From NCBI GenBank assembly GCA_000442015.1, contig KE560937.1, positions 62,001-97,703 on the forward strand: 35,703 bases of DNA, in the 5' to 3' direction. Each line of letters opens with the position of its first letter. The stretch's first letter is position 1. Shown piece by piece: positions 13,685 through 35,703 of the stretch. The notes beneath the pieces are model-generated. The model did not search any database. It was given only the letters and a program-made list of their open reading frames with translations, and was not told the DNA's origin. This DNA comes from Rozella allomycis CSF55. Taxonomy: Eukaryota. Made by a program: the position numbers and the translations under genes.

Positions 13685-13831
13685 ATAGTAAACAAACAAA
13701 AAAGTCCGGCAATCAACATTAAAGAAATTCATATTTAAGAAATAAAATAGGATTATAATAAGGATTAAAGGATATTGAATTTCATCTCAAAACAAAATAA
13801 CAACTTAAAATAATTGGGGGTTATTCACCAT

Positions 13832-13879
13832 GTCACTTTACATAAAAATACATAAGTCACATTACATAAAAATACATAA
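13832..13879. repeat. 24-bp tandem duplication (2 copies, 1 mismatch) upstream of the dynein start
   Basis: gtcactttacataaaaatacataa (13832-13855) is followed directly by gtcacattacataaaaatacataa (13856-13879). Confidence 0.85.
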
Positions 13880-14208
13880 ATGGTAAAAATATTAAAAGAC
13901 TTTACCAAGGTTAAATGTTTGCTGCATGGTTGTTTCTCATAATTAAGAGCCAAACTAGTGACTATTACAAGACGATAGAATATGCTGCTTTTCTCAGCCG
14001 CAGGGCGAGATCTTTGTCCATCCTGACGCGGAAGTGTACAGTATGAAATCCCCGGAGGGAACTGCTTCGTTTGTCCAGATGTTAATCTATGAAAAGTCTA
14101 AATTTCTCAAATAATTTTTAATCCAAAATTTTCATAGGTTATGGCTATTAATGCAAACAGACCTGTCGTCATCTTCGATTTTTATTTTTCGTTAGTTTTA
14201 AGACAAAA

Positions 14209-16119
14209 TCATACAATTCTTACATCTAGTTCTCCATTAAAAGGATGTCGCCAACCACATTGGAATTGTTCTTGGCCGTATAATCTGGAATTCATCGTGC
14301 TAGTATTATAGCCAACATGATACATGAGTAATGTTTTCGTTGCCACCATTTTACAAGATGAGCATTCTTGAAAATGTCCTCGCAAGCATTTCTGAAGGAT
14401 TACATCGGTGGGGTAATTTGATTCGTTTACCTTACTCTTTTTACTTTTAAAAGATTACTAAAAGATTTGAAAGAGTATTCGCTATTGTCTGCCTGAAAAT
14501 AAGGCCACTATATTTTTAAATTTGCATAGTTACCTTCCACCAGTCCCTATAAATAAAGAACAATGATCAGGGGACTCCAGTTGTAATTGATATAATGCAC
14601 GCATAAAGGTTGACCATTTTCCTTCACACAAAGGAAAATCGTCTTCGATAAGAGCAATATATCTGGAGTCGAAAGAATTTGATGCCAATGCAATCGCCTT
14701 CGAAAAGTGCAATCTTTGGTTGTAGGTATCACCGTCCAGCTGGACCCATTTCAGGAATTCATTTGCCTTTTTATTGTCTTTCAGAAGGTTTTTTGCCTTG
14801 AAGTATGTTTCGTGAAATGAAAAATGAGTAAACACGATCATTTTCATTCTTTTGAATAAAGGATGGTTTGAATCATCGGGAAATTCTTTTAAGTATGACT
14901 GTATTGTGTCTATCAAGTGACTAGGATTTCCGGGTCTTGGTGCAGTCATAATTAGGAAAGTTAATATAGGTTGATCATTTTCACCCAATTGTGCAATTTC
15001 AAATGGAGAAGGCGTAATTTGTGGTTTCGTATGAATAGTATTGCTAAAACAAAGAACAAAAAGCAAAATAAACGAAAACAAGTATAGTTGCCTCAGCCAA
15101 CCCTTCCTTGTCCAGTGTGATCTGCATTTTTCAATTACTTCCCATCCTTCCCGGCTTTTCGAAAAAACAATGAATGTTATAACTTGCAGAGTACCTAGTA
15201 AAAATGACGATATATGCCACCACCACTTGCACTGAATTGTCAATGGTAATGACATAAAGCATAACATTAAGTAACTTTTTCTGACAACTACCGCAAAACT
15301 TTTTTGAGCTGATTTCAGGTCTTCAAAAATGACCATGTACCTATCGCCTGATCGTAACGATTGTAACATCAATATAGCCCATAATAACGGATATAAGCCT
15401 ATTAAATATTTTTTGATCATAATACCTTCAGACGTTTGATGCATGGCTTCGTTAAAAAATAGTGAGGGAAAAGTCCATCCAATTGCCCGGGAAAATAGAA
15501 ACCCGATACCATACTGTATAATAGAAACCATGATTATGCTTAAGAATAACAGATATTTGAAGCTTATAATAGGACCTACAATCCCTGATAGCGAAGATTC
15601 TAAAAGCCATAATGATACAAACGAAATAAGTGCTTCAAACGGGTTCTTGATCAAGAATGGGGCCATGTAATATCCCGTAAAGTCTTTTCCAAAATATACA
15701 TATTTTGTTGCCGCACCTGAATATTCTAAAATTCCGCTACCTTCCATCAACGTGATGCAAAAGGACAGTAAAATGACGAAAGTAGTAGCTGGCAAAAATT
15801 CTAATTTCAATGACGTAAATATATTCTGTCTGAGCACAATTGTATCGCAAGAATTATCGTTTTTGAACAAATTGCTATTCCTGACCACCTCAAAGGTTGA
15901 ATAAGGCAATGATGGAAACCATCTTGAACTACTTCGCTCTGTGTTTGTTAAATCAGAGATCCCCTCCTGTGTAAAACGTACCTTCCATAAACCTGGCAAC
16001 AACTTAAATAATTTTTGGGCAATACTTTGCTTGCCATTAATGTTATTTTCATTTCTGTGACTATATTGTTTTTCTCTATCCTTTAATTTGACAAGTTCGA
16101 GAACTTCAACGGCTGTCAT
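14209..16119 (-). CDS. Multi-pass membrane protein with a C-terminal GT-A glycosyltransferase domain (GT54/MGAT4-like)
   Basis: N-terminal region has about 6-8 hydrophobic segments. Then LTFLIMTAPRPGNPSHLIDTIQS and YIALIEDDFPLC (EDD metal-binding motif as in MGAT4). Two short introns (26 and 28 nt) extend the ORF via GTGGSGLIF to ...YHVGYNTST...CGWRHPFNGELDVRIV* (stop at 14209). A 27-nt in-frame intron is likely at 15425-15399. Confidence 0.65.
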
Positions 16120-16292
16120 TAAATTAATTGGTAAACCCTGCTCCGAAACTCCGTTACCAAGACAATACTTATATTACTCAAGTCTCCATATCCTTTAAAA
16201 TATTTTCCCATACAAATGACATAATTTTTTTGAAAACTCGTTAGACTTTATAGAAATTATAGAAATGTAATATTTCCAATCTCAAATCGGCA

Positions 16293-17009
16293 ATGTTCTC
16301 ATTGTATAATATTTACATAGTTGATTTATACTACATATCTGGAATTGTTTTCATAGCCATGGCTTACTTTTCACCATTCAATAGGCTCAAAAGTCTTCTT
16401 CTCCATGGAAACACCTTAATTAAGTCAGGACAATGTAATTTAGGCGTTTTCTACATCAAAAAGAAAAATTTTAGCCATTTTTATTTACTTGCTGTAATTT
16501 TAGGTTGCTATAAGATGTACTATAATGAAACCGCATCCATTGAATTACCTTTCGTATTCCTGTTACACTTAATTCGAAGGTTATACGAAACAGTATTCAT
16601 ATTTAAATACCGTAGTTATTCAAAAATGCATATAATGCATTATTTGGCCGGGCATTTCTATTACTTCTCGGTATGGGAAATAGTGAGTAGAATATCACTC
16701 TTGTCAACAGTTACATGCATAGTCTTAGTAATATTACAATGCTTTCAATTTTATTTACACGTTATATTGGCTTCAAATACCAACCACGAAACATTGCCTC
16801 ACCAGTTCCCGTATGATATCCTTATTTGCCCTCATTACTTTGTGGAAGTTGTGATGTATATTGTAATTTGCTATTGCGCCAGCTCGAAATCTGCAATTTT
16901 AATGGTCATATTCACTACATTAAACCTAACCATATCTGCATCTTATTTGAAGACATCCTACGAGAAAGTCGGGATTAAGAAATATGCCATCTTTTATGGT
17001 GTCTATTAG
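16293..17009 (+). CDS. DFG10: Polyprenol reductase (steroid 5-alpha-reductase family, DFG10/SRD5A3)
   Basis: Hydrophobic 238-aa single-exon ORF with family motifs FSHFY, HLIRRLYE, SKMHIMHYLAGHFYY, HVILA, CPHYFVEVVMY and NL...A. Confidence 0.85.
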   Translation: MFSLYNIYIVDLYYISGIVFIAMAYFSPFNRLKSLLLHGNTLIKSGQCNLGVFYIKKKNFSHFYLLAVILGCYKMYYNETASIELPFVFLLHLIRRLYETVFIFKYRSYSKMHIMHYLAGHFYYFSVWEIVSRISLLSTVTCIVLVILQCFQFYLHVILASNTNHETLPHQFPYDILICPHYFVEVVMYIVICYCASSKSAILMVIFTTLNLTISASYLKTSYEKVGIKKYAIFYGVY

Positions 17010-17121
17010 GAATTTCGATAAATTATTGACAGTTTTTCATATTTTACTGCTGTATTATGAGATGAAAGGTTAAATAAGAGTCAGTTTTTTAGACATCGGC
17101 CAATTCCGAATCAGCCACAAA

Positions 17122-18025
17122 ATGGAGATCCCAATAGTTACTAAGTATTACCTCGGTGGGATACTATTTACTGCTCTACTTTGCGTAATATCATTAGAAG
17201 TTTGTTATACCAGCATTTAGATTTGGTTACTCCTTACAAACTCTACTTTAATCCAGATCTTGTGGTCAGAAAACTACAGGTATCGTTTCATTTACAGTAT
17301 AGTACAGTTTTGGAGATTGATCACACCATTTTTATATTACGGATCATTTAATTTGGAGCTTTTGATTTCGGTCTATGTTTTACTGAATCAATTTCGGCAT
17401 CTTGAACTAATGTCATTCAGGAATAGAAATGCAGATTTTCTTTATATGCTGATATTCTTTTGTTCTTCTTTATTGGTAAATTATAATATTCTGCGCTATT
17501 GTTTAGGTTATCGACTATTTTGTCCGTACAGCGTTTTTATCATCGGCATTGGAATTTGCTGTTTTATATGTGTGGTCTAGGCTCAACCCAAATATGCATT
17601 TGATGCTTATTTTATTTCCTGTTCGAGCTCCCTATGCACCTTATGGATTGATGGCTATTCATTATTTGCTCATGGGTCGATCATTAAACTACGAATTAAT
17701 GGGAATTTTTGTCGGGCATTTGTATTACTACTTGACAGAAATCTACCCACGTCTAGGAGGCAAAAACTATCTTGAAGCACCGATTATTTTAAAAAGACTA
17801 TTTGGTGAGATATCGGAAACATTAGAAGATATTACTGTAATAGACCACAGCAGAGTTGAAAATTTAAGCAGGAGAAATTTAGCGGCATCAAATACGGATT
17901 ATCGAAATGAAGAACGCAATGAAGGCGATATTGATTCTGTCATTGGCAACTCAAATGGCACGACTGCGAATGATAACAATTTAAATAGTGGAAATGAAGA
18001 AGAAGAAATAAGACTAAGGGAATAG
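17122..18025 (+). CDS. DER1: Derlin (ERAD rhomboid pseudoprotease)
   Basis: Spliced via introns 17185-17213, 17280-17307 and 17476-17506: MEIPIVTKYY...PYKLYFNP...QFWRLITPFLY...ADFLYML...YVWSRLNP...RAPYAPY...GIFVGHLYYYL..YP (WR motif and GHLYYY). The start could extend slightly upstream. Confidence 0.88.
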
Positions 18026-18099
18026 CGTTTATTTTGATAATAAATAATGCATCTTTACTTTTCAACCATTTTGTAAATTTACAAATTCACGCATAACTT

Positions 18100-19313
18100 A
18101 TGCACGGTTACTATTGTCAAGCAGCAACAGTCTATAACCCCGAGTACCAACATTTCTCGCCTGGAAAGGCTTTTGAGCTCCTGTCAAAAGCTAGTTCCTC
18201 CTTTCAGCACATTCAGTTCAGATGGACAGTTTGGAACAAGCCTAAACCAGGAGACATTTACCTCATTTTTATGAAAAATGATGAAGTTTCGGATGATGGT
18301 TACTTTTGGGCAAGTAAAGGTGAAAAAGCCCGGTTCCAATTAGAAGACTCCCAAGTAAACATGTCATGCTGTGTAAATAGATACTTGAAGTGACGACTAA
18401 TGAAGATGGATATTCATTGGGAGACAATTATGTTACTATTACGAAAAAGCTTTATAGGCTTCTCAAAAGTGAGCATCCAATCGCTATAGTTCATTACGTA
18501 GGCGTTGACACAAGTATTAATAGTCATGTAAAAATAATAGATAATATACGAATTCCTGTGAAGCCCTGCATTCCGTTTCCTAAAGCCGCGACTTTGGCTA
18601 ATAATCCCTTGATGACACCTAGACAAAGTTCGTCATTTAGACCTCCCTTCGCTGGCTCACCCGCTGCGTCACCTGCTCTTCGTTATGCGTCTCCCATGAA
18701 TATTCAGAAGTCGCAAATACAATCACTATATGCTCCGAAAAGGCCAGGCCCTACTACGCCTCAATTTAACATGCCCAGACAGCCTGTACTGAACTCACAA
18801 CTGTCTATTCAAGCCGCTAAGAAGAAGAAGAAAGGTGGGCCTGATTTTGACGATGGGGAAGATCTTTCAGGCGGTATTTATTAAACGTGAATTGTATTTA
18901 TAGACGACTTTGATAATTTTGCTGTCTATGAAGTCTCGCAGGCACGATTTATAAGAAACCATGATTTTATGTCAGAAATATTTTCAGACAACCAGCAATA
19001 TTTTAAAGAAGAAACCGTGAGGGATATGGAAAAAGTTAATGAAATGAGACGAATTTTGGAACGACAAATTGTATGCCCATAGATTTACGATAAAAAGGAA
19101 CTTATTAATTTAGATATTCATGCTATGAATGAAAATCATTCGAAGAGAATACAAAGCATGACAGAAGAAGCAAAGCAATTCACAAAGTTGTATTCTGAAG
19201 TGTCAAATGCATCTTCAATAGAAGAATTAGAAAAATACGAAAAAGAAATGAAAGAGAAACGCTTCTTCAATATCTGTACTTTTGGCTCTAATTGCATTAA
19301 AACAAGTATATAA
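18100..19313 (+). CDS. SSR4: SWI/SNF and RSC complex subunit Ssr4-like protein
   Basis: Three introns (26, 30, 27 nt). N-terminal FRWTVWNKPKPGDIYLIF...DDGYFW, Pro/Gln-rich linker, then the Ssr4-type motif EDLSGDDFDNFAVYEVSQARFIRNHDFMSEIF and a C-terminal coiled coil. Confidence 0.75.
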
Positions 19314-19416
19314 ATTTACATTCACATCACACATGTATCTTTATGTGACAGTTCGCAAATCATTGCGTTTCTATTTTTTCTATTTTTATCTTTCGATCGA
19401 CCCAGCCACTTCGAAA

Positions 19417-20760
19417 ATGTTGAAGACTTACGTTATCACAGCATCGATATTTGTAATAACCTATATAACATTTGTTCTGGGCTGGTACTTTATTATTAGG
19501 ACACCACCATCTCCAAGGACTGGCGCCCAAATCAAAGCCAAGTCAAATGGTATTGAACCAAAAAAATATTCCCAGCGTGAAGTGCTGGAGATAAAGATTA
19601 ACGACAAAGCCTTGGAGCCTTTAAATATTGAAATAGATAGAGTAAGTTACCTTGTGAAGTATATGTACGACTTTCCAGTAAGTATACAATCAACTAACGG
19701 GAACATCCTTTTACCATATCTTAGTCTCACAAATTTAAAAATATTGAATAATCTACCTGTTCAATTTAAAAGAATATTTCTAAACTTTAAAAAGCAAGAT
19801 AGTCTGTTTCAACATGGAGTGATAGCCAAATTCCATGACAGAGAAGCAATTAGGAACTTTAGACCCGGATTAAAGTTCGACTTTTCTTTGCAATTTGAAC
19901 TTCAAAGTTTGCCGGATATGGAATTTGAAATATTACAGTTGCCATTGATATTAAAGGCGATTATTGTATCTCGTGTCAATAATAATGACGCGACAAAGTC
20001 TATTATTGAAGAATTGCACAATAAAAAATTCAAAGACGATAAAATGAAAAATATTCTTAGTGGAAAGACCGATGTAGCCGAATTAAAGAAAGATAGCAAT
20101 GAGTTATTTCAACGTATAAATGAATGTGTGGAATCACTAAAGTCCGAATATAAGTGTGATGGAATCCTTGAAAAAGATGAGATAGTCAAAAAAGCCAACT
20201 CAAATACTCAAGTCAAGGCTGCGCTTGAACGAATTTTTAAGGATCAAGCGGATAAAGATTACAAAAGCATGGAAGCCTTTCAAAATATAAAGGTAGAATT
20301 TGGAGATATTGAACTAATCAGACTTCATCTTGAAGACTTTTCTGTTATAATGTTGTATTTATCTTCTCTCCACAGAGATGATATTATGAAAGTACTTTAT
20401 CCTAAATATGAAAAGGCCTTTAAAGATATATTTAAAACATTTATCGAAGAACTTGATGATTTATGTACTATTTTGAAGAATGAATACAATAATGAAAACC
20501 CTGAATATGGGTATTTGACTTCTCTGGATAATAAAATACTGTCCATGGATATTCCGATGACAATGTTAGGAAATGTTGACGAAAATAAAGTGATTGATAT
20601 AGCCAAGGAGGATAGAGTGTTTCTTGTAGAAGACGATAACTTTAATATTGTTAATGATTGGATAAAAGAAAAGTCTCTCGATACTGTAAAGGTGGTGAAG
20701 AGGACGGAATTTGAAAAGGCGCGTGATAGTGTAGAAAGTCTCACTAAAATATTGGAATAA
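19417..20760 (+). CDS. Intronless orphan protein with an N-terminal signal anchor/TM helix
   Basis: ATG at 19417 (in frame with the 19282 ORF) is followed by TYVITASIFVITYITFVLGWYFII, then a long Lys/Glu/Asp-rich helical region. No recognisable motif. AATAAA at about 20773. Confidence 0.65.
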   Translation: MLKTYVITASIFVITYITFVLGWYFIIRTPPSPRTGAQIKAKSNGIEPKKYSQREVLEIKINDKALEPLNIEIDRVSYLVKYMYDFPVSIQSTNGNILLPYLSLTNLKILNNLPVQFKRIFLNFKKQDSLFQHGVIAKFHDREAIRNFRPGLKFDFSLQFELQSLPDMEFEILQLPLILKAIIVSRVNNNDATKSIIEELHNKKFKDDKMKNILSGKTDVAELKKDSNELFQRINECVESLKSEYKCDGILEKDEIVKKANSNTQVKAALERIFKDQADKDYKSMEAFQNIKVEFGDIELIRLHLEDFSVIMLYLSSLHRDDIMKVLYPKYEKAFKDIFKTFIEELDDLCTILKNEYNNENPEYGYLTSLDNKILSMDIPMTMLGNVDENKVIDIAKEDRVFLVEDDNFNIVNDWIKEKSLDTVKVVKRTEFEKARDSVESLTKILE

Positions 20761-20801
20761 CAAGTAGTCTTAAATAAAGGATAATTAATTTTGTTGGGAC
20801 T

Positions 20802-23066
20802 TTATAGTTTAAGTTTTTTAGCGACAATAGCGTCTTTTCTAGTAGCTTCTCTTTTAATTGAGTTTTCAATATTCTTGTTTACAAGCTTTTTAATTTTAGT
20901 CAAGTGATTATTCATTTCATTATGAAAATCAGTGAAAGAATTGGAGTCATTAACGAAAGAACATTCTATTGGAATATTAGCAAATGAAGGGAACGAAAAT
21001 TCTGCACAAGGGTATGGATTTGTTAATTGACTTAAAAATTTGGAGATTATTTCTTGTGAACTTTCAATGCTATGTGAATATTAATGTTAATAGAGTACCA
21101 TAGAGAATGTGATTCCAAGAAGAACTTGTCAATTGAAGCGTTAACCTCTTTTGAGACTGTTGAAATATCATGCTTTAGTTCTTCTTCACTTTTTATAATG
21201 ATTCTATAAATAGCATCTTTGAAATTTCTTTAACAAATTCTTACTTGAAATTTGAGTTAATAGATTCATCAATTCTGGATCTTTCTTTTTAGATTCTTTT
21301 TGGTTTAAATTTGTTTCAAATAATTTTCTCTTTAATCGTGACACTGACAAAGCTGAATCAGTTGTTGATGATTCTTTTGTTGTATGAAAGTTAATTTTAC
21401 CTGAAATTGAACTTGCACTTAATGCAGGGGGAGAAGAGTATTTCTTTCTTCCAATTTCAATTGGTTCTAAAGATGAATTTGATTCTATGGGAAATAGAGA
21501 TTCTCTTCTTTAAATTGGTTTTCTAACCACTGAATTTTCAATTTCATTTTTTGGTTTGAGTTCTATTGGAGTCTTTTTTCGCGTTGATTGAATTGAATTT
21601 CTTTTTATTTTCACAGCAGAATCCTTTATCTTTGGTCTTTCGTTTTGTTCAGTGTATTCTGATTCTTCTGATGATTTTTCTGAAGATATTTCTTTTAATT
21701 TTATTGATTTTCTATTCTGCTTTTTATTAATGCTTTCACTTGTCTTGCTCTTAATGTTCAAACTTTCATCATCCTTCGGCTTCTTCAGATCTACAACATC
21801 TAATTGTTTGACTATATTCTCCTCATTCTTCACATTCGATTCAGATTCACTTTCAATTAACAATTTTTTAAATTTTCTAGCACTTCTTTTAATTGAAAAA
21901 CTTGTTCTATTCTCTTTCTCTGGAATTTCCAAATTGTTGGTGGCTGGGGTCTCTAATTTATTTTTAGATTCAGTATTTTCATTTGTAACTTCCATTAAAT
22001 TTGAAATTCTTTCTTCAACAATTTCTGAATCAAACTTTTTAATTGATAAAAGAGGCTCTATAGGCAATGAATGTTTCTCTTTTCTCACCAATTTTTTTTC
22101 TATAAATTCAATTTCACTTTCCTTTATATCCATCGGTTGGAATTCTATTTTAGATCCATCTTTAGAAATAAATTTTAAATATTTCTTGTTTATTTCAAAA
22201 TCTTTTACATCTTCATATCTTATGTCATTCCAGTCATTATCATCCAAACACAACGTTATAAAATGTTCATTAAAATGAAGAAACGCAGTATCATCAGAAT
22301 CTATTAAAGTTATTCCATTATTTGTAGAATTAATAAACATAAAAGCCTTTTCTATAAAGTTCAACGGATCAAGCTCATAGAATGCCTTTTTCATTCTCAC
22401 ATCACATCCCCTGAAAAGACTATCAATAAAATCATCCTTCTTTTTAGGCGTAATTTTATATAAAAACATTGTCAATTTATACTGAATAACTCTGTCATTA
22501 TCTCCAATCAATACCTTCAACAAGGTTGAAAAATGTTTATTCTCAAACTTAGTTACATATATCTTGTTTTCTTTGCAATCTTGGATCAACAAATTAATTA
22601 CATGACACGCCTTGAAATCAAAAAGACTAATGGATTACTTTTCGTCTGCTATTCAAATCAAATGATTTTGGATTTTCAATTATATTAAAGCATACGGAAA
22701 ATATAGACTTTTGTTCTTGAATTTTTACATGTGCGTCATGATCTATCATTTTCTACCTTGAATTCTAACAATCACTGTTACTTGAATATAGGTCAAAGAT
22801 CTTAGGATTCCATCTTGAAAATGAGATGCCTTGATTAGGTTTTGCAAACATTCAATCATGTCCTGAATATTCTCCTTGCAGAATATGGCCACATTAAACA
22901 AACACTCTGAAATATTCTTTACTAATTCCTTTTGGTTTTCATCTGAAAATTTGATAGAATTCAACAGTGATGCGAATCTCTTTAAACTATTCCCAGCAAG
23001 TTTTATATCATACTTGTTTTGAGCTAAAGTTTTTCTATGTTTTAAAGATGCCAGAAAACTATTCAT
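20802..23066 (-). CDS. SYCP2/Rec10/Red1-like meiotic chromosome-axis core protein, with an in-frame TAA at 21512-21510
   Basis: Five 27-29 nt introns. The N-terminal segment GDNDRVIQYKLTMFLYKITPKK...KAFYELDPLNFIEKAFMFINSTN...AFLHFN...W parallels my recollection of the SYCP2 ARM-like/PH region (GDYDLQV...LCRMT...AFKRIKDSEFETDCRIFLNLVN...FWIDFN). It is followed by a K/E/S-rich disordered region and a C-terminal helical tail ending KKLKL*. Confidence 0.6.
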
Positions 23067-23082
23067 TACAGGGGTACATCAT

Positions 23083-23108
23083 TTGGCGGTTCCCTGAATT
23101 GGCGGTTC
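23083..23108. promoter_or_regulatory. Duplicated TTGGCGGTTC motif (URS1-like or E2F-like GGCGG core) just upstream of the meiotic-axis gene
   Basis: Exact 10-mer at 23083-23092 and 23099-23108, within the 107-bp AT-rich gap, 17-42 bp upstream of the ATG at 23066. Confidence 0.5.
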
Positions 23109-23173
23109 ATCCAAATTAAGAAAATTATGAAATAAACAGTCTAAAATAAATAAGTTTTTATTAATCTACAGTT

Positions 23174-24861
<1,688 letters not shown>

Positions 24862-25261
24862 ATTTCTTTTAATAAATCTAAAGATATTAGCTATGTTCCA
24901 CTTCATGATTAATAAACAAGAACGGGACTTTCAAAGACAAAGAGTTAATTAATCTTTGCTTTGAAAATATCTAAATCCCCGCACAAATTAAAGTTTTAAA
25001 GTCAGATCACTTACTTTCAAAGTTTGACGGAAGATTAATTCCAGCAGTTCTAATATGGACCCGTATTCTCCAATCCTATAAATAGATTCCAAGCCCTTCG
25101 CGTGGCGGCCATGAGCCATAACTGGGTCGTTTCGGTTAGAATAGACAAGAATATGTTATCTTTGATTGAGTAATCAATAAAACAAAGATTATTAATAAAT
25201 TTCTTTCTCTGTGAGCTTAGTTTTGAAATGAATTTTGAATCAGTGAAAATTTAATTTACTA

Positions 25262-25691
25262 GTGGCAGATAATTTGGCTGGGCTTCAGCATCGCGTCGAC
25301 GTATCACTCACATCTGGCTCTGTGTTTACAATGCTTGTTTGTGAAATTGAAAATTTCCTGCCTGAAAACCAGCTTCAGACTAATAGCAATATCAAGATGC
25401 TAGGAGAGCTGAGAGATAGTTAAACTATGTGAATGCGATATTCCGTTGACTAAAGATGCTGCGGTGATGCTTTCGCACACTGGTGAACAATTTTCCCATG
25501 TTCAGAGGATCCTTTTACGCCTTTGGTCGATTTCCATGCATGAAGTATGGAAGATATTTCAAGAGGAAGGACTAATGGGGGCGGTCAAAAACAATTATAC
25601 TAATCCGGGATCTTCCTCTATTTTATCGGCACCGGAGAGAGAGGCTGTAGTCCGTCCTAGTGCAATGGAGTTGTCGGCGGATGATTTTTAA
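25262..25691 (+). pseudogene. Possible degenerate or orphan coding remnant (two open frames offset near 25410-25420)
   Basis: GC-richer island. Frame A (VADNLAGLQH...KMLGELRDS*) overlaps frame B (EIVKLCECDIPLTKDAAVML...SADDF*) at a GAGAG run. No clear start codon and no recognisable homology. Confidence 0.2.
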
Positions 25692-25945
25692 ATCGACCCG
25701 GAGTTGGGAATGTTTGTCCAACCATGATCAATTTTTTATCAGTAAATTATAAATATAAAATATCGATAAACGAAACTCGATTAAAATTCATCATGATCAA
25801 TATAAATGATTAAGAGATAAATGTAAAAATTTCAAACTCTTGCCAGTCTCACATTAACAATGCCTTTCCATGAAGCGTGTATTGTTTCTTAAATATTCAA
25901 TATTTAAGCGTTAAAACTCTTCATCCAGACAATCTTGAAATTTCC

Positions 25946-27031
25946 ATGAGTGAGTGTGAGAAATCTCCAGCCGATTCCATAATTTCATTTACAGAGATAC
26001 CAAATCCCAGTGATTTCGATAGTTTTGGTAAGAAATAATTAAATATATGTTTCAGGTTACGTTTATGGTGGTTCTGTTCTCTGTTGGATGGATGTGGCAG
26101 GAGGAATGGCAGCCAAAAGGCATTCAAACACCATTGTAGTAACAGCAAGCGTTGTAAGATATATATAAATCTGGTAAAAGGACGCTGTTCATTTTCTTAA
26201 TCCAATCAAAAAGGGCTGTGTAGCAAAAATTTACGCGCGAGTGAACCGATCATGGAATTCGAGCATGGAAGTTGAAGTTTTGGTCCAATCCGAAATATTA
26301 TTAACTGGAGAATGTCTTCTTTGTTGCCACGGTAAGTTTTGCCTCTAAAGATTAAATTAGCGTATTTTACCTTTGTCGCGATAAAGGATGAAAAGCCGAT
26401 ATTGGTACCGAAAATTGTCCCCAAACTGAAAGAAGAAATTTTACGATGGGAATCAGCTGATACGAGACGTACAATTCGATTTCAAAGAAAGAAGAACATG
26501 AAACCAGAGTTGATTAAACCAACTGATGTTGTGTATGCGAATGGAAGTTGCCAGATTATAAAAATGATAATGCCTGAACATACTAATCCGATGAATATAA
26601 CATTTGGTGGAATGATAATGTCGTGGATGGAGCATGCTGCGTATATTGCGGCAACGAGGGCTACGAGGACGCATTTATTGACTGCTTCAATGGACCAGCT
26701 GCAGTTCCATAGACCTTCTATGGTTGGCCATTTGGTTACTATTGTAGCCAGAGTTACGAAAGTGTTTAAGCAAAGTGTGGAGGTGTATATTGTTGTGAGA
26801 AGTGAAGATCCGATTACCAATCAAGTACAGTTGACGAATGATGCGTGGATCTCGTTTGTCTCTGTTGATCAAAATGGGAAACCATTTCCACTAAGTGATG
26901 TAGAAGAAATAGGAGAGGTGAAAACTGTTGAAGCAGAAAAGAGAAAGAATCACAGATTGGAAGAAAAGAGGCAAATTTTATCAGAGAACTCTGAAGATTG
27001 GGATATCACTCATCAAACTAGCGCATTTTGA
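25946..27031 (+). CDS. Acyl-CoA thioesterase with two hotdog domains (ACOT7/11/12-like)
   Basis: Introns 26028-26055, 26154-26180 and 26332-26360. Domain 1: GYVYGGSVLCWMDVAGGMAAKRH...VTASVDAVHFLNPI...SSMEVEV. Domain 2: PEHTNPMNITFGGMIMSWME...TASMDQLQF...SVEVYI. Confidence 0.88.
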
Positions 27032-27086
27032 TGTTTCATTAATGAATAAAGAGAAAATTTATTAAGTTGCAATTATGGACTTACTA

Positions 27087-30000
27087 TTAGTTAGCTTTGA
27101 TAATTCGACTGCCATCTAGAACGTATCCATTTGCTTTTAATTCATCCAAAGACTTTTCTACTAATTGTTCTAAAAACAATTTCTTTGCACTGTCCAAGTT
27201 TGAATCACTTTTCAATTTTAGTCCATAAAATGATGGATTTTTTAGCACTCTGTTTGCCAGAAAACTATTTTCAAGTAACGCAAGAGCGTCTTTAAAGGAT
27301 TTGATGTTACCAATTTTGACTTGGGAAAGTAAAAGTTTAGGGAAATGCAAATGAAGGTTTGATTCTAATGGAAAAGGTTCATAAAGGAATTTTTTGTAGT
27401 AAGATTTTTTGATATCTTGAACAAGAACGACGACTGTTGACATTTCGTCTATTTGGGGTCTGCCAGCTAGACCCATCATTTGATGAATATCGGCTAATGG
27501 ATAATCAACAAAACATTTTGATTCAGAGTCAAAGTATTCCGTGCCTATTAAGATTGAAATATTAATTATTACCTAAATAAATGAAGAATGTAAGTGTTAC
27601 CTTTGATGATGACTAGATGAGCAGGAAACCGTGATTCCCAAGCGAACCCTTTAACCAACACCAACACCAATATTTTATTCATAGAAAATAGCATTCTAAC
27701 AATCCTCTTGTCATTATCCTTCAATCCATAGTGCATGAACCCAATTCCGAATCTTAAAACATGTTTCAATTGTTGATCTTGGACGTTATCTAGAACATTT
27801 TCAATTTCAGTGTCGACTTTGAGATAGTTGTTATTGATTGTGCAGTGAGCAATTAATTCATGGGCAGTGGCTACAGTTTGATTTTGGGACGAAACAAAAA
27901 CAACTGTTGGCTTTGATGAGGAGTATGTTTCTATTGCTTGATATATTGGTTTGTTCATTAGATTCATTCTTGTGGAATAATTCTTGTCGTCAAAGCCTTG
28001 AATGTAGACTTGAAGTGGGAGAGGACGAACATTTGGTTTGAAATTGAACAGATTAGATGAAGGTATTTTCAACCAATCAGCAACATCTTTAACGTTTGAT
28101 AAAGATGTAGACAAAACAATCATTCTAATTTTATTGTTAAAGTTCTGTAATTGATGAATATGAGAAATCAATATTTCTACACTTGGATTTAAATCCAACA
28201 AATGTATTTCATCAATAATTATAAGAGATATTTGAGATGAAAAGAATTCCAAATTAAAGTTTTGATTTTCTTGAATTGATTCCATCCACTTTTCAGGTGT
28301 TGACAAGACTAGTTGAGAAACATCAAAGTCGCTGAAACTTCTTAATTCATTCATGGGGATGTTTAATCTTTTCCAATCTCTACTTTTGTCTTTCACAATT
28401 TGTTTCAGTGGAGAGAAATAAATAATTTTGCCATTTGGATTATTTCTTAGTGAATTCCAAATAGTAAATTCAGCAATCAATGTTTTACCAGAGCCTAATT
28501 TATTATGTATGAATAGAATTTACCGCTGGGTGCTCCAATGAATAGATTTGACGTAGTGTGATAAGCTTGATGGAAAACAAGAGATTGAATTGGATTGAAA
28601 TAGTTGATGTCTTTGTAGATTTGTATTAACTTTTCGTCCATGAGACTTGATTTATTTAAAAGATTCAAAGGTAATAAATCTGTATGAAAATTTTCTACTT
28701 TTGGCATTATTAAATCATCAAGTGAGATTGGCAAATGAAATTCACAATGTAGCCATTTGTCACTAACAACAGAAATTAAAATTTCATTTGGTTTTGGATT
28801 AGCAATTGGAATGAAAAAGTTTACGAAATTTACAGAATGAAAGTTTTGTTTCGTTAAATAAAATGGTTCAGAATGATACAAAAACAAGCCATCAGAATCT
28901 TTTGCAAAGATCCAAAATAATTCAGAATTGGAATGCACAGAATCATTCCATGTAAATTTTGTCTTTATTTTTAAATTAACTTTGACAACATTGTTAGAAA
29001 TTGGTGAAATTTCAGATTCTAAAAATAGATTTGGAAATTCATGAATTGCGTTGAAAACAATTTTGCCTTGATTTGGATTTAATAAGTTTGACAAATCAGA
29101 CAGAGAAAGAGATAAAAGTTCATCAAAGGAATATTTTTGGATTTTGAATAAATAGTCATTTTTAATTGATCTGAATTGAAATAGAAAATGATCATCCAAC
29201 CAAAGTCTTTTTTCAATCATTTTAGCTAAATTTAACGACATTTCAGCAGTTGAAGCCCAATTTCTTTTTAATGAAATTTCTAAAATAGATCTGATTAATC
29301 TAGAAGCATTTTGAATTATGTAATTTGTGTCAGATATTAATGAAAACGAATTTAAATGGAAATTAGAAATATAAGATTGAAGTAGAATGTTAACTTTACC
29401 ATTTACAGAACAAGATCCACCGAGAACCGGGATTAAACAATGGTTTTGTTCAATTGAATCTAATTCTAAAACTTCTTCTTGTCTAACTTTAATATTTTGG
29501 AATTCAAAAGATGAACAAAGACAATTTAAAACATTTTTAATGTCCATATCCATTTTTAAACTATTTTGAAATATTTCAACTGTTTGATGTTTCAAATAAT
29601 AAAGAGAAGCAATTCTACCCAAACTCTTTACATTAAATGATAAATTTTCATTTGAATTTGACAAGGGTTCTTTAACAATTCCAATCATATCAAGTTTATT
29701 CAAATATTCCAAAGAACTTTTAATAATCTCAATCAATTTATTTTCAATATTCTGACTCAAATTCTGATTAATTCTAATTCCATATTTCAATGGATTCTTT
29801 CTCATTCTAACGTACAAATAACTATATTTCAACCAATTTATTGCTTCGTTTAAATTAGAAACAGTCCCAAGCGTTATTTCTGCATTTAAATTATCAACCA
29901 GATTGTTATTAAATTTCGATTCAATTGGAATTTGATGTGTTATACTTGAAACATAAAAATTTAATTTTTCATGTCTTGTTATTATTATCCCTTCTCCATG

Positions 30001-31983
30001 ACTTTCATATTGCGGCCTCCCTGCTCTGCCAAATATCTGCAAAACATCTAAAATTCCTAAATCTACAAATCCTCCCTTTTCTGGATTGTAAATTTCCGTT
30101 CCTTTGATTATTACTGCGTGGGCTGGTAAATTAACACCCCAAGCCAAAGTAGCAGTACAAAACAAGACCTTTCATAATGAATGAATCTAAAATGTTACCT
30201 ATACTAATGATTGTAAGTTTTGCTTACCTAAGATAATGAATGCACTATAGACTTTACCTTTATCTTGCTGGTTTCAAATAACTTTTCCACCAATAATCTG
30301 TCACCTCTAATCATCCCCGCATGATGAATCCCAAGTCCATTCGGTACCAATTCTTCTAATTGTCTGTTTCTACTATTCTTTCCATTCCAATTATTCTCAA
30401 CCTCAAATAAATCAATACAATCATATTCTCTCATTAACTGAATAAACTTTTTAGCACCCTTAAATGTTGCATTCCTTGAATGCACAAAAATCATCACTTG
30501 ATGTCCCTGTCTCAAATACTCACACGTTCTTTCAAACGCAATCACATCCATCTCTTCCAAAACCATATTTTTATTATTTCCTTTAATCCCTACAAACTTT
30601 TGCGTCAACGGGACTGGTCTAAATCTTCCATCAAAATAAAACATTCCATTCACATTCACATTCAGAAATTCAGCTACATCCACAAAATTTGGCAACGTTG
30701 CTGATAACCCAACAATTCTTATCATCTTTTGCGTCATTTCAATTTGTCGCTGTGTTCTCGCTACAATACTCTCCAAAACTGATCCTCGCTCGTCTTCAAG
30801 TAAATGAACTTCATCTATAATCAACAGTCTCACCTTTTCAACTAGATCAACATCATTCTTTCTCGTTGTAACATCCCACTTCTCAGGCGTTGTTACTATG
30901 ATCTGGGTCTCTGCTATTTCAGATCTACTCAGTTGCATATCTCCTGTATATTCCCTAGTCTTAACCCCCAGCTTTTTCAATTGTTTCTCAAACTTTCCCA
31001 CAATCTCAGTTGCCAATGCCTTCATCGGCGCAACATACACAATCTTAAATGCATCCTTGTCCAAATTTCCTTTATCATTCACATTTGTATATTGTTCAAC
31101 ACAATGCATAATCGCTAAAAGAGCAACATTTGTCTTTCCTGCACCAGTTGGCGCACACACCAAAACATTCTCATTACGCTCGTAAATAACTGGAAACACC
31201 AATGATTGCATCATATTAAACGTTTCTATATTAGAAAACGCAACTCTGGAAAATTCATTCACTCTATAAGTCGGTACCAATTCCACTTGTACATCTCCTC
31301 CACTCCTCTCACTCGGAATAACAAACTCTTCATACAGCTTATTATCATATCTTTCAGTGCCGGCAGGTAACGCTATTTTAGTGCCGAAAGCTGACAGCAC
31401 CGACGTAGAGCTGGGCTCCCCATACACATGTGGGTACTTTTTCGTTTCTCCAGTCTACATTACCCTCTTGCCAACAATCTTACCACTCTCTTTGAAAATA
31501 TAGATTCATTAATTGACTCATTTTCCTTTTTCTTTTTCAAATCTCGAATCCTTTGAGCATTTTTCCTACGATCCTGTATTAACTTGAAAATCACGTCTAT
31601 CGAATCGTAACCAACAAGTTCCAAGATTTCTTCCTGTATCTCATCATCTATAAACAAAATAATATATCATTTGTACCGCTCATGTTGCATTCAAGCATCT
31701 CTACCATCTTGTCTTGCACATAATCGACTCCCAATTCCCAATTTCGCGTTTCAAAAAATCTTTTAATCCAGTCTTCACTAGAATTTCCTGTTTCTTTGAA
31801 TCTTTGGGTTTTCATTTGTTCCTCTGTTGCCCAGTATCTTTCTACTAACTGGCGAAATTCGAATACTTTGGCTCGCTCGCCCGGAAGATTCCAGTTGACT
31901 GGTTCTTTGCTTATATCCACGGGACGGAACTTTCCTTTTGATATTCTTGATTTTATCAAATTTATTCGGTCAGTGAAATCCAT
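27087..31983 (-). CDS. ASCC3: ASCC3/Slh1 (Rqt2) Ski2-like dual-cassette helicase with a degenerate C-terminal cassette and no final Sec63 domain
   Basis: YPHVY and ALPAGT N-terminal motifs. Cassette 1: APTGAGKT, DEVH, SAT, TATLAWGVNLPA, DLGILDVLQIFGRAGRPQ, then Sec63. Cassette 2: APSGSGKT, DEIH, QMMGLAGRPQ. Five intervening sequences, two of which are stacked mini-introns. Confidence 0.92.
27545..27600 (-). other. Composite 56-nt intron made of two abutting 28-nt introns (zero-length exon)
   Basis: AAAG|gtaacacttacattcttcatttatttag|gtaataattaatatttcaatcttaatag|GCACG. The flanking exons give the contiguous motif IIKG-TEYF. Confidence 0.85.
30169..30257 (-). other. Composite 89-nt intron made of three abutting introns (30+29+30 nt; two zero-length exons)
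   Basis: AAG|gtaaagtctatagtgcattcattatcttag|gtaagcaaaacttacaatcattagtatag|gtaacattttagattcattcattatgaaag|GTC. The flanking exons give contiguous KIK-VLFCTATLAWG. Confidence 0.88.
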
Positions 31984-32254
31984 TTCTGGAAATTTGCAGA
32001 TAGCGATGGGTCATTTTGAGAACCGCTACTGAATATGCGTGTGCATTAATTATTCTAAAAAGTTATATTTGAATTATTTATAATAAATTAGCTATTCTGC
32101 CATTATTTAAGCAAAAATTTTGCAATCGTTCATTTTGATTTTTCAAACAAGGGATGCTTGCATTAATTATAAATTATGATGTATTTGTGGCAATTACGGG
32201 CCTACGGCAAATCTATGCAATTAATATCATTGAGAAATTTCTCCAACCAAACTA

Positions 32255-35200
32255 ATGACCTTGAAGGAATATTATATTCGAGTTAATGTTCCACTATTAG
32301 GTCACACAATTCTTCTATGCGATCCAAGTACTACACCAATCGATGTTCTGACGAAACTACGGGAATATAAATTTGTAATAATGTTCCTTTTCAACCATCA
32401 GGAAAGCCGACCAACTAATGACGTATTTGGCGAATCCAACTTGGTATTTAATGGTGTATAATCATGTAAATTTTAAAATAGCATTTATTGCCACTTCATG
32501 AACCAATAGCGTCCAATGAGTCCATTGTTAAGATGATTTTACGATCTTCTTATCCTGAAATTACAGTGTCTACAAAGAACAACATAGAGGTTGCAAAAGA
32601 TTATGATCAAATTTTACATAATGAATTGGCCGAGGTTTATCAAAAATTACAGACAATGACTGTTTCATTTCTGAACAGAGCTGATTCAGAAAGCAAAAGT
32701 CAGATAAAGGAAGTAAAGGATATTAATAATTTTAATAGATTCAATTAATGAAGAAAAGAATAGGGAATATAATTGGGTTCGGGCTTTACCGGTTTCGAGA
32801 TTCAAGGAGGGAGAAGGGTGAAATTATGTCGTTTAGAAACAATATTTATCAGTAAAATTAACTTAATGCTGTAAAATCGATTCGTTAAGAAGGTAGCGGA
32901 ACGTAGAGACTACGATGAATACATGAATCCTAGCGATGGATTTAAGCGTCCATTAAAAATTGAAAAAGTGATAGCAAGAATAAAATTCAAGGACTCTGAA
33001 AAAACAATTTTAATTGATCGTAATATTTTATTGTAATTTATATAGAATCCGATACTGTAGAGATGGTGTTGCAAAAATCACTTCAGAAACATAAACTTCA
33101 AAATTATGATGATTGGCAGCATTATATACTACGATGGAAGACAAAGGCAATATATTTTACTGAAATGAACAAAAATTTTCTTCAATTATGGAGCCTATCA
33201 GAATGCATGGATGATAGGGAGATTGTGAATTTAACAATTGAGAATTGGAAGGATGTAATTCCGGGAAAATACAAGGAAATCTTCCAGACAATAGATTATG
33301 AAATTCCAGTGGATGAAACAAACTCTCTCCCTGATCCTGTCCACTCATGCGAAGTTGAAAGGAATGTTGAAATCAAGATTGTCAACTGTGAAGATCTACC
33401 GAGTTTAGATTATAATTACATTTATTTAGAGGCTCATTTGTAAGTTATTAATGCCATAGTAGATAGAATGCATGGTGAACAAGTCCTAACAGGTAGCAAG
33501 TTAACCTCGTACCATATTTTTCAACCTAAAGTTGAATTTAAAGAAAGACTTCTTTTTGATTTTCCAATATCGAAGCTTCCCAGATACTCGGAGTTTGTAA
33601 TTAAACTTTACGGATTGAACACTAAAAAATATGATAATGGAAGCATCTGTCTTTTTAAAGGCTCAACTCCGACATTTGAATATAACGGAATATTTAAATA
33701 TGGAAACTTTCAAATGACTCTGTTTAACGTCAATGACCCAAATGCAGCGAACATAAAACTCAACTTTGAAATTCCTTGTGAAGAGATGATAATAATATTT
33801 TCACAGAATGAAAAGTATTATAAACCCGATATAATAACCCGCGTGGACCCTTTGCATCGTGATCTTTTAGAGAGAGCTTTAAGCACAGACCCATTAGATG
33901 AATTAGATCAAAACATGAAGAATATCATTTTCAGATATCGTTACTGTTTAACGCATGATCCTTTATTTTTATCTAAATACGTTAACTCGATTGATTACTC
34001 AAATCAAGCACAAATTGAAGAAAGTCACATGTATATGTTTTTACAATATGTTATTTAGTTTATTGCAACAGTGGTCTGTGAACGAAGAAGTTGATAATCA
34101 TATTTTAGCAATGGAGCTACTAGGATATTCTTTTAGGGATGCGACTGTTAGAGATCATGCAGTGAAATTGTTGAGCGGTATCAGCAATCACGCATTGAAA
34201 GGATTTCTTTCACAATTTATACAGGTTATACTTTGTAATTTGATTTACTAGTGTTTAAAGAATGAACTATATTTCGATAATAGTTTAATAAGATTCTTGT
34301 TGGAGAAATCATTAAATAGTAGAACTATTGGTCATACATTATTTTGGTATCTCAAAGTAAAGTAGATAAATTATTGTCACAGGCTGAAATCGAAGAGCCA
34401 GAAATGAGCATACCGTGTGCTCTGTATTTAGAAGCGTATCTTCGTGCTTGTTCTTCAACAGTTTTGGTAATGTCTTTTGGTTGAAGATAACTAGAATCTT
34501 CTCGAGAGAGAAAATAAATTAAATTGTTTTCTGATAAATCTATCAAAAGAAATTAAACTAATAAATGATTCCAAGAACAAATTGATTCATCTCAGAAGAG
34601 AACTAGGAAAACACTCACTTCATTTACCAGTGTCCATGCCATACGACCAAAATATATTTTGCGGCGACTTTATTGTTGAAAAATGCAAAATCATGGACTC
34701 GAAAAAGGTAGATATCTAGATTGGTTAATAAAAGCAACCATTGTGGTGCGCCATGAATAATCACTTATGCGCTGATGACCCCATTTACTATATATTCAAA
34801 GAAGGTGATGATCTAAGGCAAGACATGTTAACCCTCCAAATGTTAAATTTGATGAACAATGTAAAACGAATATACTCTTTAAATTAGATCTGGAAAGATG
34901 AAGGATTCAATTTCCATATGAAAATTTATAATGTTATTTGTACTGGAAAAGAAACAGGCTTTATACAAGTTGTAAGAGATTCACAAACTGTCAGTTGTAT
35001 TCAAAAGGAATACGGCGGATCAACTGCGGCTTTTAAGGATCAACCGATTTCAGACTTCATTAAACAATATAATCCATCGGAATCTGAATATTTGGATGCT
35101 GTTGATATATTCACTCGATCATGTGCAGCTTATTGCGTCGCTACGTATATTCTTGGGATCGGTGATCGTCACAACGATAACATTATGGTCACAAAACAAG

Positions 35201-35601
35201 GTCATTTGTTTCACATTGATTTTGGACACTTTCTGGGAAACATAAAAAGGAAATTTGGAATCAAACGTGAAAGGGCACCATTTGTGTTGACGCCGGATTT
35301 TGTATACGTCATGAAAACAAAGTCTTCAGATCAATTTGACTTTTTTATAGGATTATGTGTAAAAGCATACAATATAATCAGAAAACACGGTAGAATGTTT
35401 CTTGTACTATTCAAATTAATGTTGTCCACCGGTATCCCTGAATTAACATGCAATGAAGATATTTTCTATTTAAGGGATGCCCTGAAATTAGACCTTGATG
35501 ATGTACAGGCGGAAAAACATTTCAAAGGCTTGATCTCTGAAAGCTTGAGACTTGGTTGGAGTACACAATTGAACTGGTTAATTCACAATCTAGCTCATTG
35601 A
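32255..35601 (+). CDS. Class I-type phosphoinositide 3-kinase catalytic subunit (p110-like)
   Basis: Twelve 26-28 nt introns. IGNIIGFGLYRF...EIMSFRNN (p110 linker), RBD-like region, C2 (LPRYSEFVIKLYG), helical domain (VRDHAV, QFIQCLKNE, FWYLKAE) and kinase (MDSKKQPLW, FKEGDDLRQDML, LGIGDRHNDN, HIDFGHFLGNIKRKFGIKRERAPF, WSTQLNWLIH). Confidence 0.9.
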
Positions 35602-35703
35602 ATTCAATAAATTAAAGTTAATGTATAAAGTTATCGAATTTAATTTAATGGTACGTAATAAGTTATTATCGGACGGGGAGTTTACGACCCGGACTTCAGA
35701 AAC

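Follow-up and report, generated by a model that had tools for sequence, protein, structure and literature searches.

A 56-nt intron made up of two minimal-length units end to end in a helicase gene of Rozella allomycis

Two composite introns in one helicase gene

A 35,703-nt stretch of the Rozella allomycis CSF55 genome (assembly GCA_000442015.1, contig KE560937.1, positions 62,001 to 97,703; hereafter the window, in whose numbering all coordinates are given) contains on its minus strand a predicted ASCC3/Brr2-like helicase gene of the two-cassette Ski2 type (27087..32010), the coding sequence of which is interrupted by a 56-nt GT..AG gap at 27600-27545. This gap splits exactly into two 28-nt units, unit 1 at 27573..27600 (GTAACA...TTTAG) and unit 2 at 27545..27572 (GTAATA...AATAG), both of which begin with GTAA and end with TAG. 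At the internal junction (27572..27573), which reads TTAG|GTAA, an acceptor is directly followed by a donor, leaving an exon of zero length. On the strength of this anatomy, we lean towards reading the gap as a pair of complete, minimal U2-type (GT-AG) introns that directly abut and would be removed stepwise across the zero-length exon.

The extended GT-AG intron consensus of this organism (GTA[A]... [T/A]AG) is present in the 56 nt as a whole as well as in each unit. At the sequence level, removal of unit 1 first yields AAAG|GTAATA, in which a normal donor is re-created, and removal of unit 2 first yields TTTAG|GC, with a normal acceptor context. As in recursive splicing, a first round would re-create a splice site for the second. 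The arrangement is not that of a nested stwintron, as the units abut at a clean AG|GT and neither interrupts a signal of the other. Retention of either unit alone causes a frameshift and an early stop. The division of the gap into 27600-27573 and 27572-27545, the two equal lengths and the abutting termini had been described in an earlier annotation made from the letters alone (the sequence-only reading), with which our reading of the sequence agrees.

The reading frame defines the outer limits of the gap. The exon upstream (27601..28494) carries motifs I to V of cassette 2 and a Pfam DEAD domain, and its frame ends with ...FPAHLVIIK and the first base of a split Gly codon (g at 27601). The last exon (27087..27544) supplies the remaining gc of this codon (27544-27543), followed by TEYFDSESK, a Pfam winged-helix domain and the stop codon at 27089-27087; after the last two bases of the Gly codon, the downstream frame reads TEYFDSESKCFVDYPLADIH. 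The minus strand across the gap thus consists of ...atcatcaaag, 28 nt, another 28 nt, and gcacggaatacttt. Reading through the 56 nt in frame 0 leads to a stop after ten codons, and their removal restores the frame and the motif VIIKG|TEYF. In an alignment with nine homologs (10 sequences), K1327, G1328, T1329, and E1330 are invariant and contiguous. The NCBI protein model, in which both over-length gaps of the gene are removed as single introns, joins ...VIIKGTEYFD... and ...SKIKVLFCTATLAWG... in the same way. Frames, homolog alignment, and NCBI model thus all bear out the exon junction IIKG|TEYF proposed by the sequence-only reading.

After removal of the curated introns, the helicase gene forms one open frame of 1563 codons. 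The exons flanking the gap match the Pfam DEAD helicase, Sec63, and SNRNP200-type winged-helix (SNRNP200_wHTH) domains. In a protein search, the 548-residue exon flanked by the two composite introns matches the "Sec63-domain-containing protein [Rozella allomycis CSF55]" with 100% identity; the next best among the 120 listed matches are fungal and animal ASCC3 proteins with 42-47% identity, and no listed match lies between 100% and 47%. The identical protein and the ASCC3 matches therefore place the gene, by sequence similarity, among the ASCC3/Brr2-like helicases and its source in Rozella allomycis or a near-identical strain. The standard genetic code fits the window, with frames of several hundred to 1693 codons staying open with TAA, TAG, and TGA as stops; ciliate code 6 was tried first and dropped, as the long frames hold under the standard code.

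The winged-helix domain of cassette 2 is the last domain of the predicted helicase; the second Sec63 domain, by which all nine aligned homologs are about 600 residues longer, is absent. Its stop codon lies only 55 nt from that of a convergent thioesterase gene (27087-27031). The NCBI model also drops about 70 residues, from ...SDKWL to SGKTLIAEF (~28495-28740, minus strand), including the conserved FNPIQ...GAPSG start of cassette 2. It seems to use a wrong long intron at this place, where a plain 29-nt intron (28523-28495) retains these residues.

A second composite intron is found at 30169..30257 on the minus strand of the same gene. It is 89 nt long, joins SKIK|VLFCTATLAWG and consists of three units of 30, 29, and 30 nt (30257-30228, 30227-30199, and 30198-30169), with AG|GTA at both inner boundaries. 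Residues K556, V557, and L558 at this site are also invariant and contiguous in the alignment with the nine homologs. As the motifs are contiguous and nothing coding is missing at either site, the loss of a small exon cannot explain the stacking.

Intron lengths, scores, and haplotypes

The introns of the window were surveyed by scanning both strands for GT..AG segments that join open frames, and doubtful places were curated by eye. This census comprises 46 intron positions in the single 35.7-kb window. The 44 ordinary introns are all 26-31 nt long, with 7 of 26 nt, 11 of 27 nt, 13 of 28 nt, 9 of 29 nt, 1 of 30 nt, and 3 of 31 nt; three ordinary 29-nt introns lie in the helicase gene itself (28495..28523, 31648-31676, and 31455-31483, minus strand). 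The curated set contains no intron of 32-55 nt, and the only introns longer than 31 nt are the 56-mer and the 89-mer. Each 28-nt unit of the 56-mer thus has the modal length, and the whole 56 nt fall outside the range of all 44 ordinary introns. Removal of ordinary and composite introns leaves open frames of 4077 (dynein), 1563 (helicase), 849, 836, and 547 codons, which indicates that the curated set is essentially right. One intron (9706-9680) may be 33 nt long instead, starting 6 nt upstream. The sequence-only reading had stated that the only two over-length introns of the window share the stacked build; this holds in the census, except that by our reading the 89-mer consists of three units and not two, and that one junction of another gene (32852-32906) might involve a further intron above 31 nt.

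A cruder count of GTA...TAG spacings, giving a weak peak at 29 (17 against 8.6 expected), was replaced by the frame-joining approach. The ordinary introns have A at position 3 in 95% and at position 4 in 71% of cases. From these 44 introns, we built a model of the base composition in the interior and of eight positions at the 5' end and ten at the 3' end, and applied it with leave-one-out scoring. True introns score 11.0 bits on average (sd 2.4, minimum 6.5), against a mean of 1.6 bits for 1037 decoys, which are the window's other GT..AG segments with lengths of 26-31 nt. Unit 1 of the 56-mer reaches 11.6 bits, above 27 of the 44 ordinary introns, and unit 2 reaches 13.0 bits, above 36 of them; 10 and 2 of the 1037 decoys, respectively, score as well. 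The three units of the 89-mer score 12.4, 11.7, and 10.5 bits, equaled by 4, 9, and 22 decoys. All five units (10.5-13.0 bits) thus lie within the range of true introns.

Within ordinary introns, AGGT occurs at 2 of 919 inner positions and AGGTA at none. We estimated analytically the chance that an ordinary 56-nt intron contains an AG|GT so placed that both parts measure 26-31 nt (five possible places), obtaining 0.008 (Markov) to 0.011 (empirical), or 0.0025 if AGGTA is required. For the three-part build of the 89-mer, the corresponding value is 4e-5 to 7e-5. In addition, total lengths of 56 and 89 nt both fall in the ranges expected for two and three units, with P = 0.012 if lengths are uniform over 32-150. 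No 26-31-nt unit with an intron-like score abuts any of the 44 ordinary introns, and no further hidden stack was found among them. Taken together, the scores, the low chance probabilities, and the lack of abutting units at ordinary introns show that the stacked architecture is a real property of both over-length introns. The claim of the sequence-only reading that the build is no coincidence is thus upheld, with a chance of about 1% for the 56-mer and below 1e-4 for the 89-mer and with every unit intron-like.

A branch-like yTnAy motif is found in all five stack units (in the 56-mer, CTTAC, TTCAT, and TTTAT in unit 1 and TTAAT in unit 2) and in 23 of the 44 ordinary introns; given the latter proportion, the branch signal is degenerate and the motif has little diagnostic value. 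No fold that would hide the inner junction or pull the outer ends together is predicted for the 56-mer (z = -0.19) or the 89-mer (z = -0.77), and z is -1.44 when exon flanks are included. A hairpin that shortens the 56-mer or masks its inner site was rejected on the same z of -0.19.

To follow the stack at the DNA level, contigs of the sequencing runs X4, X5, X6, and X9 were compared with positions 15704-35703. The stack is bridged by one contig of X5 (record 15, 22880-28142) and one of X6 (record 22, 27501-27764), and no DNA joint corresponding to a form without the 56 nt is listed in the contigs of the four runs. The comparison revealed a second haplotype or strain with a divergence of about 2% (107 differing letters in a contig of 5211). 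In X4 it accounts for a depth of 113.6 out of 357.9, and X5 and X6 contain no other form. The stack is present in both haplotypes. In the second one, one base is inserted behind 27581 and one is missing at 27590, so that unit 1 stays 28 nt long. These compensating indels fit a length constraint, though other introns of the window are 27 or 29 nt long. Among the 12 shown of the 28 listed indels, none falls at the inner junction, and the only two in the gap are those in unit 1. Three of these 12 (3, 6, and 3 nt) are multiples of three; the 28 indels are spread over 20 kb.

Proposed stepwise removal and competing explanations

The ordinary introns vary so little in length that recognition seems to take place across the intron, with donor and acceptor paired at a near-fixed span of 26-31 nt. 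The inner sites of the 56-mer are as good as real sites and lie at the preferred distance; each unit would thus be expected to be defined by its own donor and acceptor (27600 and 27573 in unit 1, 27572 and 27545 in unit 2). Because two spliceosomes hardly fit together on 56 nt, the units would be removed in two successive rounds, i.e., by recursive splicing across the zero-length exon. On paper, either order of removal works, and the frame through K-G-T-E would be restored only after both rounds. We infer the use of the inner sites, the order of removal, and the origin of the units. What stands firmly of the stacked-intron interpretation given in the sequence-only reading is its anatomy and its non-random build, each half being a minimal intron of full quality.

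Several observations weigh against stepwise removal or limit the support for it. The 31-nt upper length limit is one that we infer from a small sample taken from one window, and the junction at 32852-32906, ahead of the PI-kinase gene, is either a gene boundary or an intron of 36 or 55 nt; the two candidates score 7.8 and 7.7 bits, and the A+T share of the 36-nt candidate (0.58) is below that of every curated intron. With so degenerate a branch motif, the branch point of unit 1 is only putative. The compensating indels of the second haplotype keep both the 28-nt unit and the 56-nt total and do not separate the possible readings. Among 15 listed sequencing runs, 7 of which hold the stretch or part of it, none is recorded as an RNA run that contains the locus; metatranscriptome X9 matches only short conserved pieces (31-48 nt at 85-95% likeness) and is uninformative on Rozella. 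Moreover, the sequence-only reading had counted the two composite introns as independent cases, which is too strong. Both lie in one gene that holds 5 of the 46 intron positions of the window (P = 0.0097 if placed randomly), three of their five units share a core motif, and they may go back to one event rather than represent two independent trials. Finally, a 76-nt intron of microsporidia is spliced better than introns of about 25 nt, according to the available excerpt of PMC6349667, so that a reduced spliceosome can process a longer intron in one step.

This last case leads to the most serious competitor, in which the outer donor at 27600 is joined directly to the outer acceptor at 27545 and the inner AG|GT is a little-used relic, whether the units arose as separate introns or as an intron and an inserted copy. 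We regard such one-step removal as a possibility that has to be taken seriously, though a less probable one than removal in two rounds. Besides the efficient splicing of the microsporidian 76-nt intron, it is supported by the good outer signals, with the 56-mer as a whole scoring 14.3 bits, and by the single intron in the NCBI model, though that model is predicted and wrong elsewhere in the same gene. However, it would create an intron longer than 31 nt where none of the 44 ordinary introns exceeds this length, and it would require skipping a perfect inner acceptor and donor that are as strong as real sites, lie at the preferred distance, and are masked by no predicted fold. Moreover, one would expect an unused relic to degenerate, yet AG|GTA is intact at each of the three inner junctions in the 56-mer and the 89-mer.

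An ordinary long intron with a coincidental AGGT at its middle is very improbable. AGGT does exist within ordinary introns, at the two inner positions mentioned above, and 6 of the 44 ordinary introns precede an exon starting with GT. The chance estimates for the 56-mer and above all for the 89-mer nevertheless argue against coincidence, as do the intron-like score and length of both halves and the fit of the total lengths to two and three units. Even less credit can be given to a non-spliceosomal origin of the gap, be it an assembly artefact, a DNA segment excised from the genome, or coding sequence read in an unusual manner. No observation speaks in its favor; the idea arises because a length of 28 nt is also typical of the short DNA segments eliminated in ciliates. 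Rozella, however, is a relative of fungi and not a ciliate, the standard code applies and places in-frame stops inside the gap, contigs of three other runs cover the stack, and no DNA form without the segment is listed.

Stepwise removal also allows a wider and more tentative proposal, which we put forward as a speculation that could well prove wrong. The reduced spliceosome of Rozella might act as a gauge of length and process nothing outside a span of about 26-31 nt, in which case an intervening sequence could grow only by whole introns. Every over-length intron of the genome would then be a chain of units with obligatory recursive splicing, and such chains would arise by insertion of an excised or copied mini-intron at existing splice junctions.

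Origin, known systems, and other features of the window

A first metagenome scan with the 548-residue exon returned 127 pattern-matching stretches, none of which encodes a relative. In a second scan with the 10-sequence alignment, 80 loci were kept out of 544 relatives; they are mostly intron-poor, with 38-57% identity, and no close relative above 57% was found in the collections searched. The site of the 89-mer (SKIK|VLF) is uninterrupted in 76 of these 80 distant loci and not covered in 4. For the 56-mer site (IIKG|TEY), 48 loci are uninterrupted and the other 32 are either without coverage or unclear. No intron was thus found at either site in the covered loci of this sample, which is biased to intron-poor contigs. 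One apparent intron at the 56-mer site was rejected as a cross-match; this metagenome ASCC3 homolog (L044, 55% identity) has an intron of about 90 nt (2920-3010) at the paralogous IIKG|T position of cassette 1.

A recent tandem duplication of the two 28-nt units is not supported, since they resemble each other no more than random intron pairs do (203 of 1176 pairs reach an equal or higher similarity). Resemblances exist among other units of the stacks. Units 1 and 3 of the 89-mer share the 10-letter core CATTCATTAT at an equal distance from the acceptor, and a CATTC..TTCATT core is common to three of the five stack units. Unit 3 of the 89-mer also resembles unit 1 of the 56-mer, both starting with GTAACA, which is seen in none of the ordinary introns. 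Two of the ten stack-unit pairs are in the top 14 of the 1176 pairs (P = 0.0045 against background), the two pairs sharing a member. Together with the clustering in one gene and the uninterrupted sites of the distant homologs, these resemblances hint, if weakly, at a gain of the introns within the Rozella lineage, with copies of a single mini-intron having been added where the helicase gene already had splice junctions. We favor whole-intron gain at an existing splice junction, which offers a perfect AG|GT proto-splice site, over recent tandem duplication. If the length-gauge proposal holds, the clustering in one gene and the shared core would be traces of this route of gain.

Published systems, which we compared on the basis of the available excerpts of the cited papers, share some of these features. 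Recursive splicing at zero-nucleotide exons, or ratchet points, is known in Drosophila and vertebrates (bioRxiv 10.1101/006163). As in Rozella, the acceptor is directly followed by a donor, the first round re-creates the donor, and the intron is removed in successive rounds. There, however, introns of kilobases are cut into large pieces and the process is optional, whereas in Rozella the pieces are minimal introns of about 28 nt, the whole measures only 56 or 89 nt, and a length limit may force stepwise removal.

Within the fungal lineage, the 375-nt BOT1 intron of C. neoformans (210 + 165 nt) and a 336-nt intron of S. pombe SPNCRNA.445 are removed recursively around a zero-nucleotide exon (bioRxiv 10.1101/224170, 10.1101/226894). 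Here too, one annotated intron corresponds to two introns around a zero-nucleotide exon. These cases are isolated long introns with ordinary, unequal pieces and were shown by spliceosome profiling; in Rozella, the pieces have unit length, both over-length introns of the window are stacked, and the arrangement is read from the DNA sequence. "Abutting U2 introns excised by recursive splicing" have been named as a class separate from stwintrons (PMC6616335). In the stwintrons of filamentous fungi, the outer intron has its donor, branch site, or acceptor split by the inner one and the order of removal is fixed, whereas the Rozella units abut without nesting and either order leaves a canonical second intron.

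A very narrow range of minimal intron lengths is also found in other genomes with ultra-short introns, such as Paramecium and Nyctotherus, with introns of about 25 nt (PMC5014332), and microsporidia, with introns of about 23-30 nt (PMC6349667). The available excerpts of these accounts contain no mention of whole-unit stacking, and the 76-nt intron of E. cuniculi is treated there as a single, better-spliced intron. For R. allomycis, putative introns of about 30 nt have been noted in an S23 gene (PMC6349667), and a density of about 2.5 introns per kb of coding sequence has been given (PMC8476143). In a literature search that covered sources other than the Rozella genome paper and its supplements, no description of unit-length introns stacked end to end was found, in Rozella or elsewhere. 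If the inner sites are used, the stacks would represent a novel form of recursive splicing, with the minimal intron as the unit of both addition and removal.

Recursive splicing would then be a necessity imposed by a spliceosome of fixed reach, rather than an aid for very long introns, and the composite introns would provide a simple natural system to test how intron length is measured, of interest for research on intron recognition and intron gain. The stacks bear on the latter in that two or three introns lie at one codon position, and under the length-gauge proposal they would record a way of gaining introns that has so far gone undescribed. In gene prediction and annotation, lengths of about 56 nt and 85-90 nt would have to be read as intron chains. 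Since Rozella is the sister lineage to microsporidia (PMC8476143), the finding also bears on how splicing changed towards their extreme reduction.

Elsewhere in the window, Pfam matches identify an axonemal dynein heavy chain, a KA1-domain kinase, a 4HBT thioesterase, and a PI3/PI4-kinase, and the window as a whole has no Rfam matches and no tRNA genes. The PI-kinase gene contains a 27-nt intron (34225-34251, plus strand) with the unusual donor GTTATA, the length of which is a multiple of three and which ends in an in-frame TAG. On the minus strand, a frame that runs from 22752 to 20802 (about 620 codons with three introns removed) is broken only by one in-frame TAA (21510-21512), with no GT..AG segment of suitable length found around it; this stop may separate two genes, mark a pseudogene, be subject to read-through, or be an error. 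A stretch of 744 nt (13787-14529) that separates the dynein gene from the gene upstream of it has no long frame on the minus strand, the strand examined, and no Rfam match; it is unusually long for so compact a genome. At the end of the window, the depth jumps about 30-fold over 35047-35703 and especially 35665-35703 (9339 against about 300 in X4, with similar values in X5 and X6), and many contigs diverge at 35665-35668; the last ~38 nt are part of a high-copy repeat.

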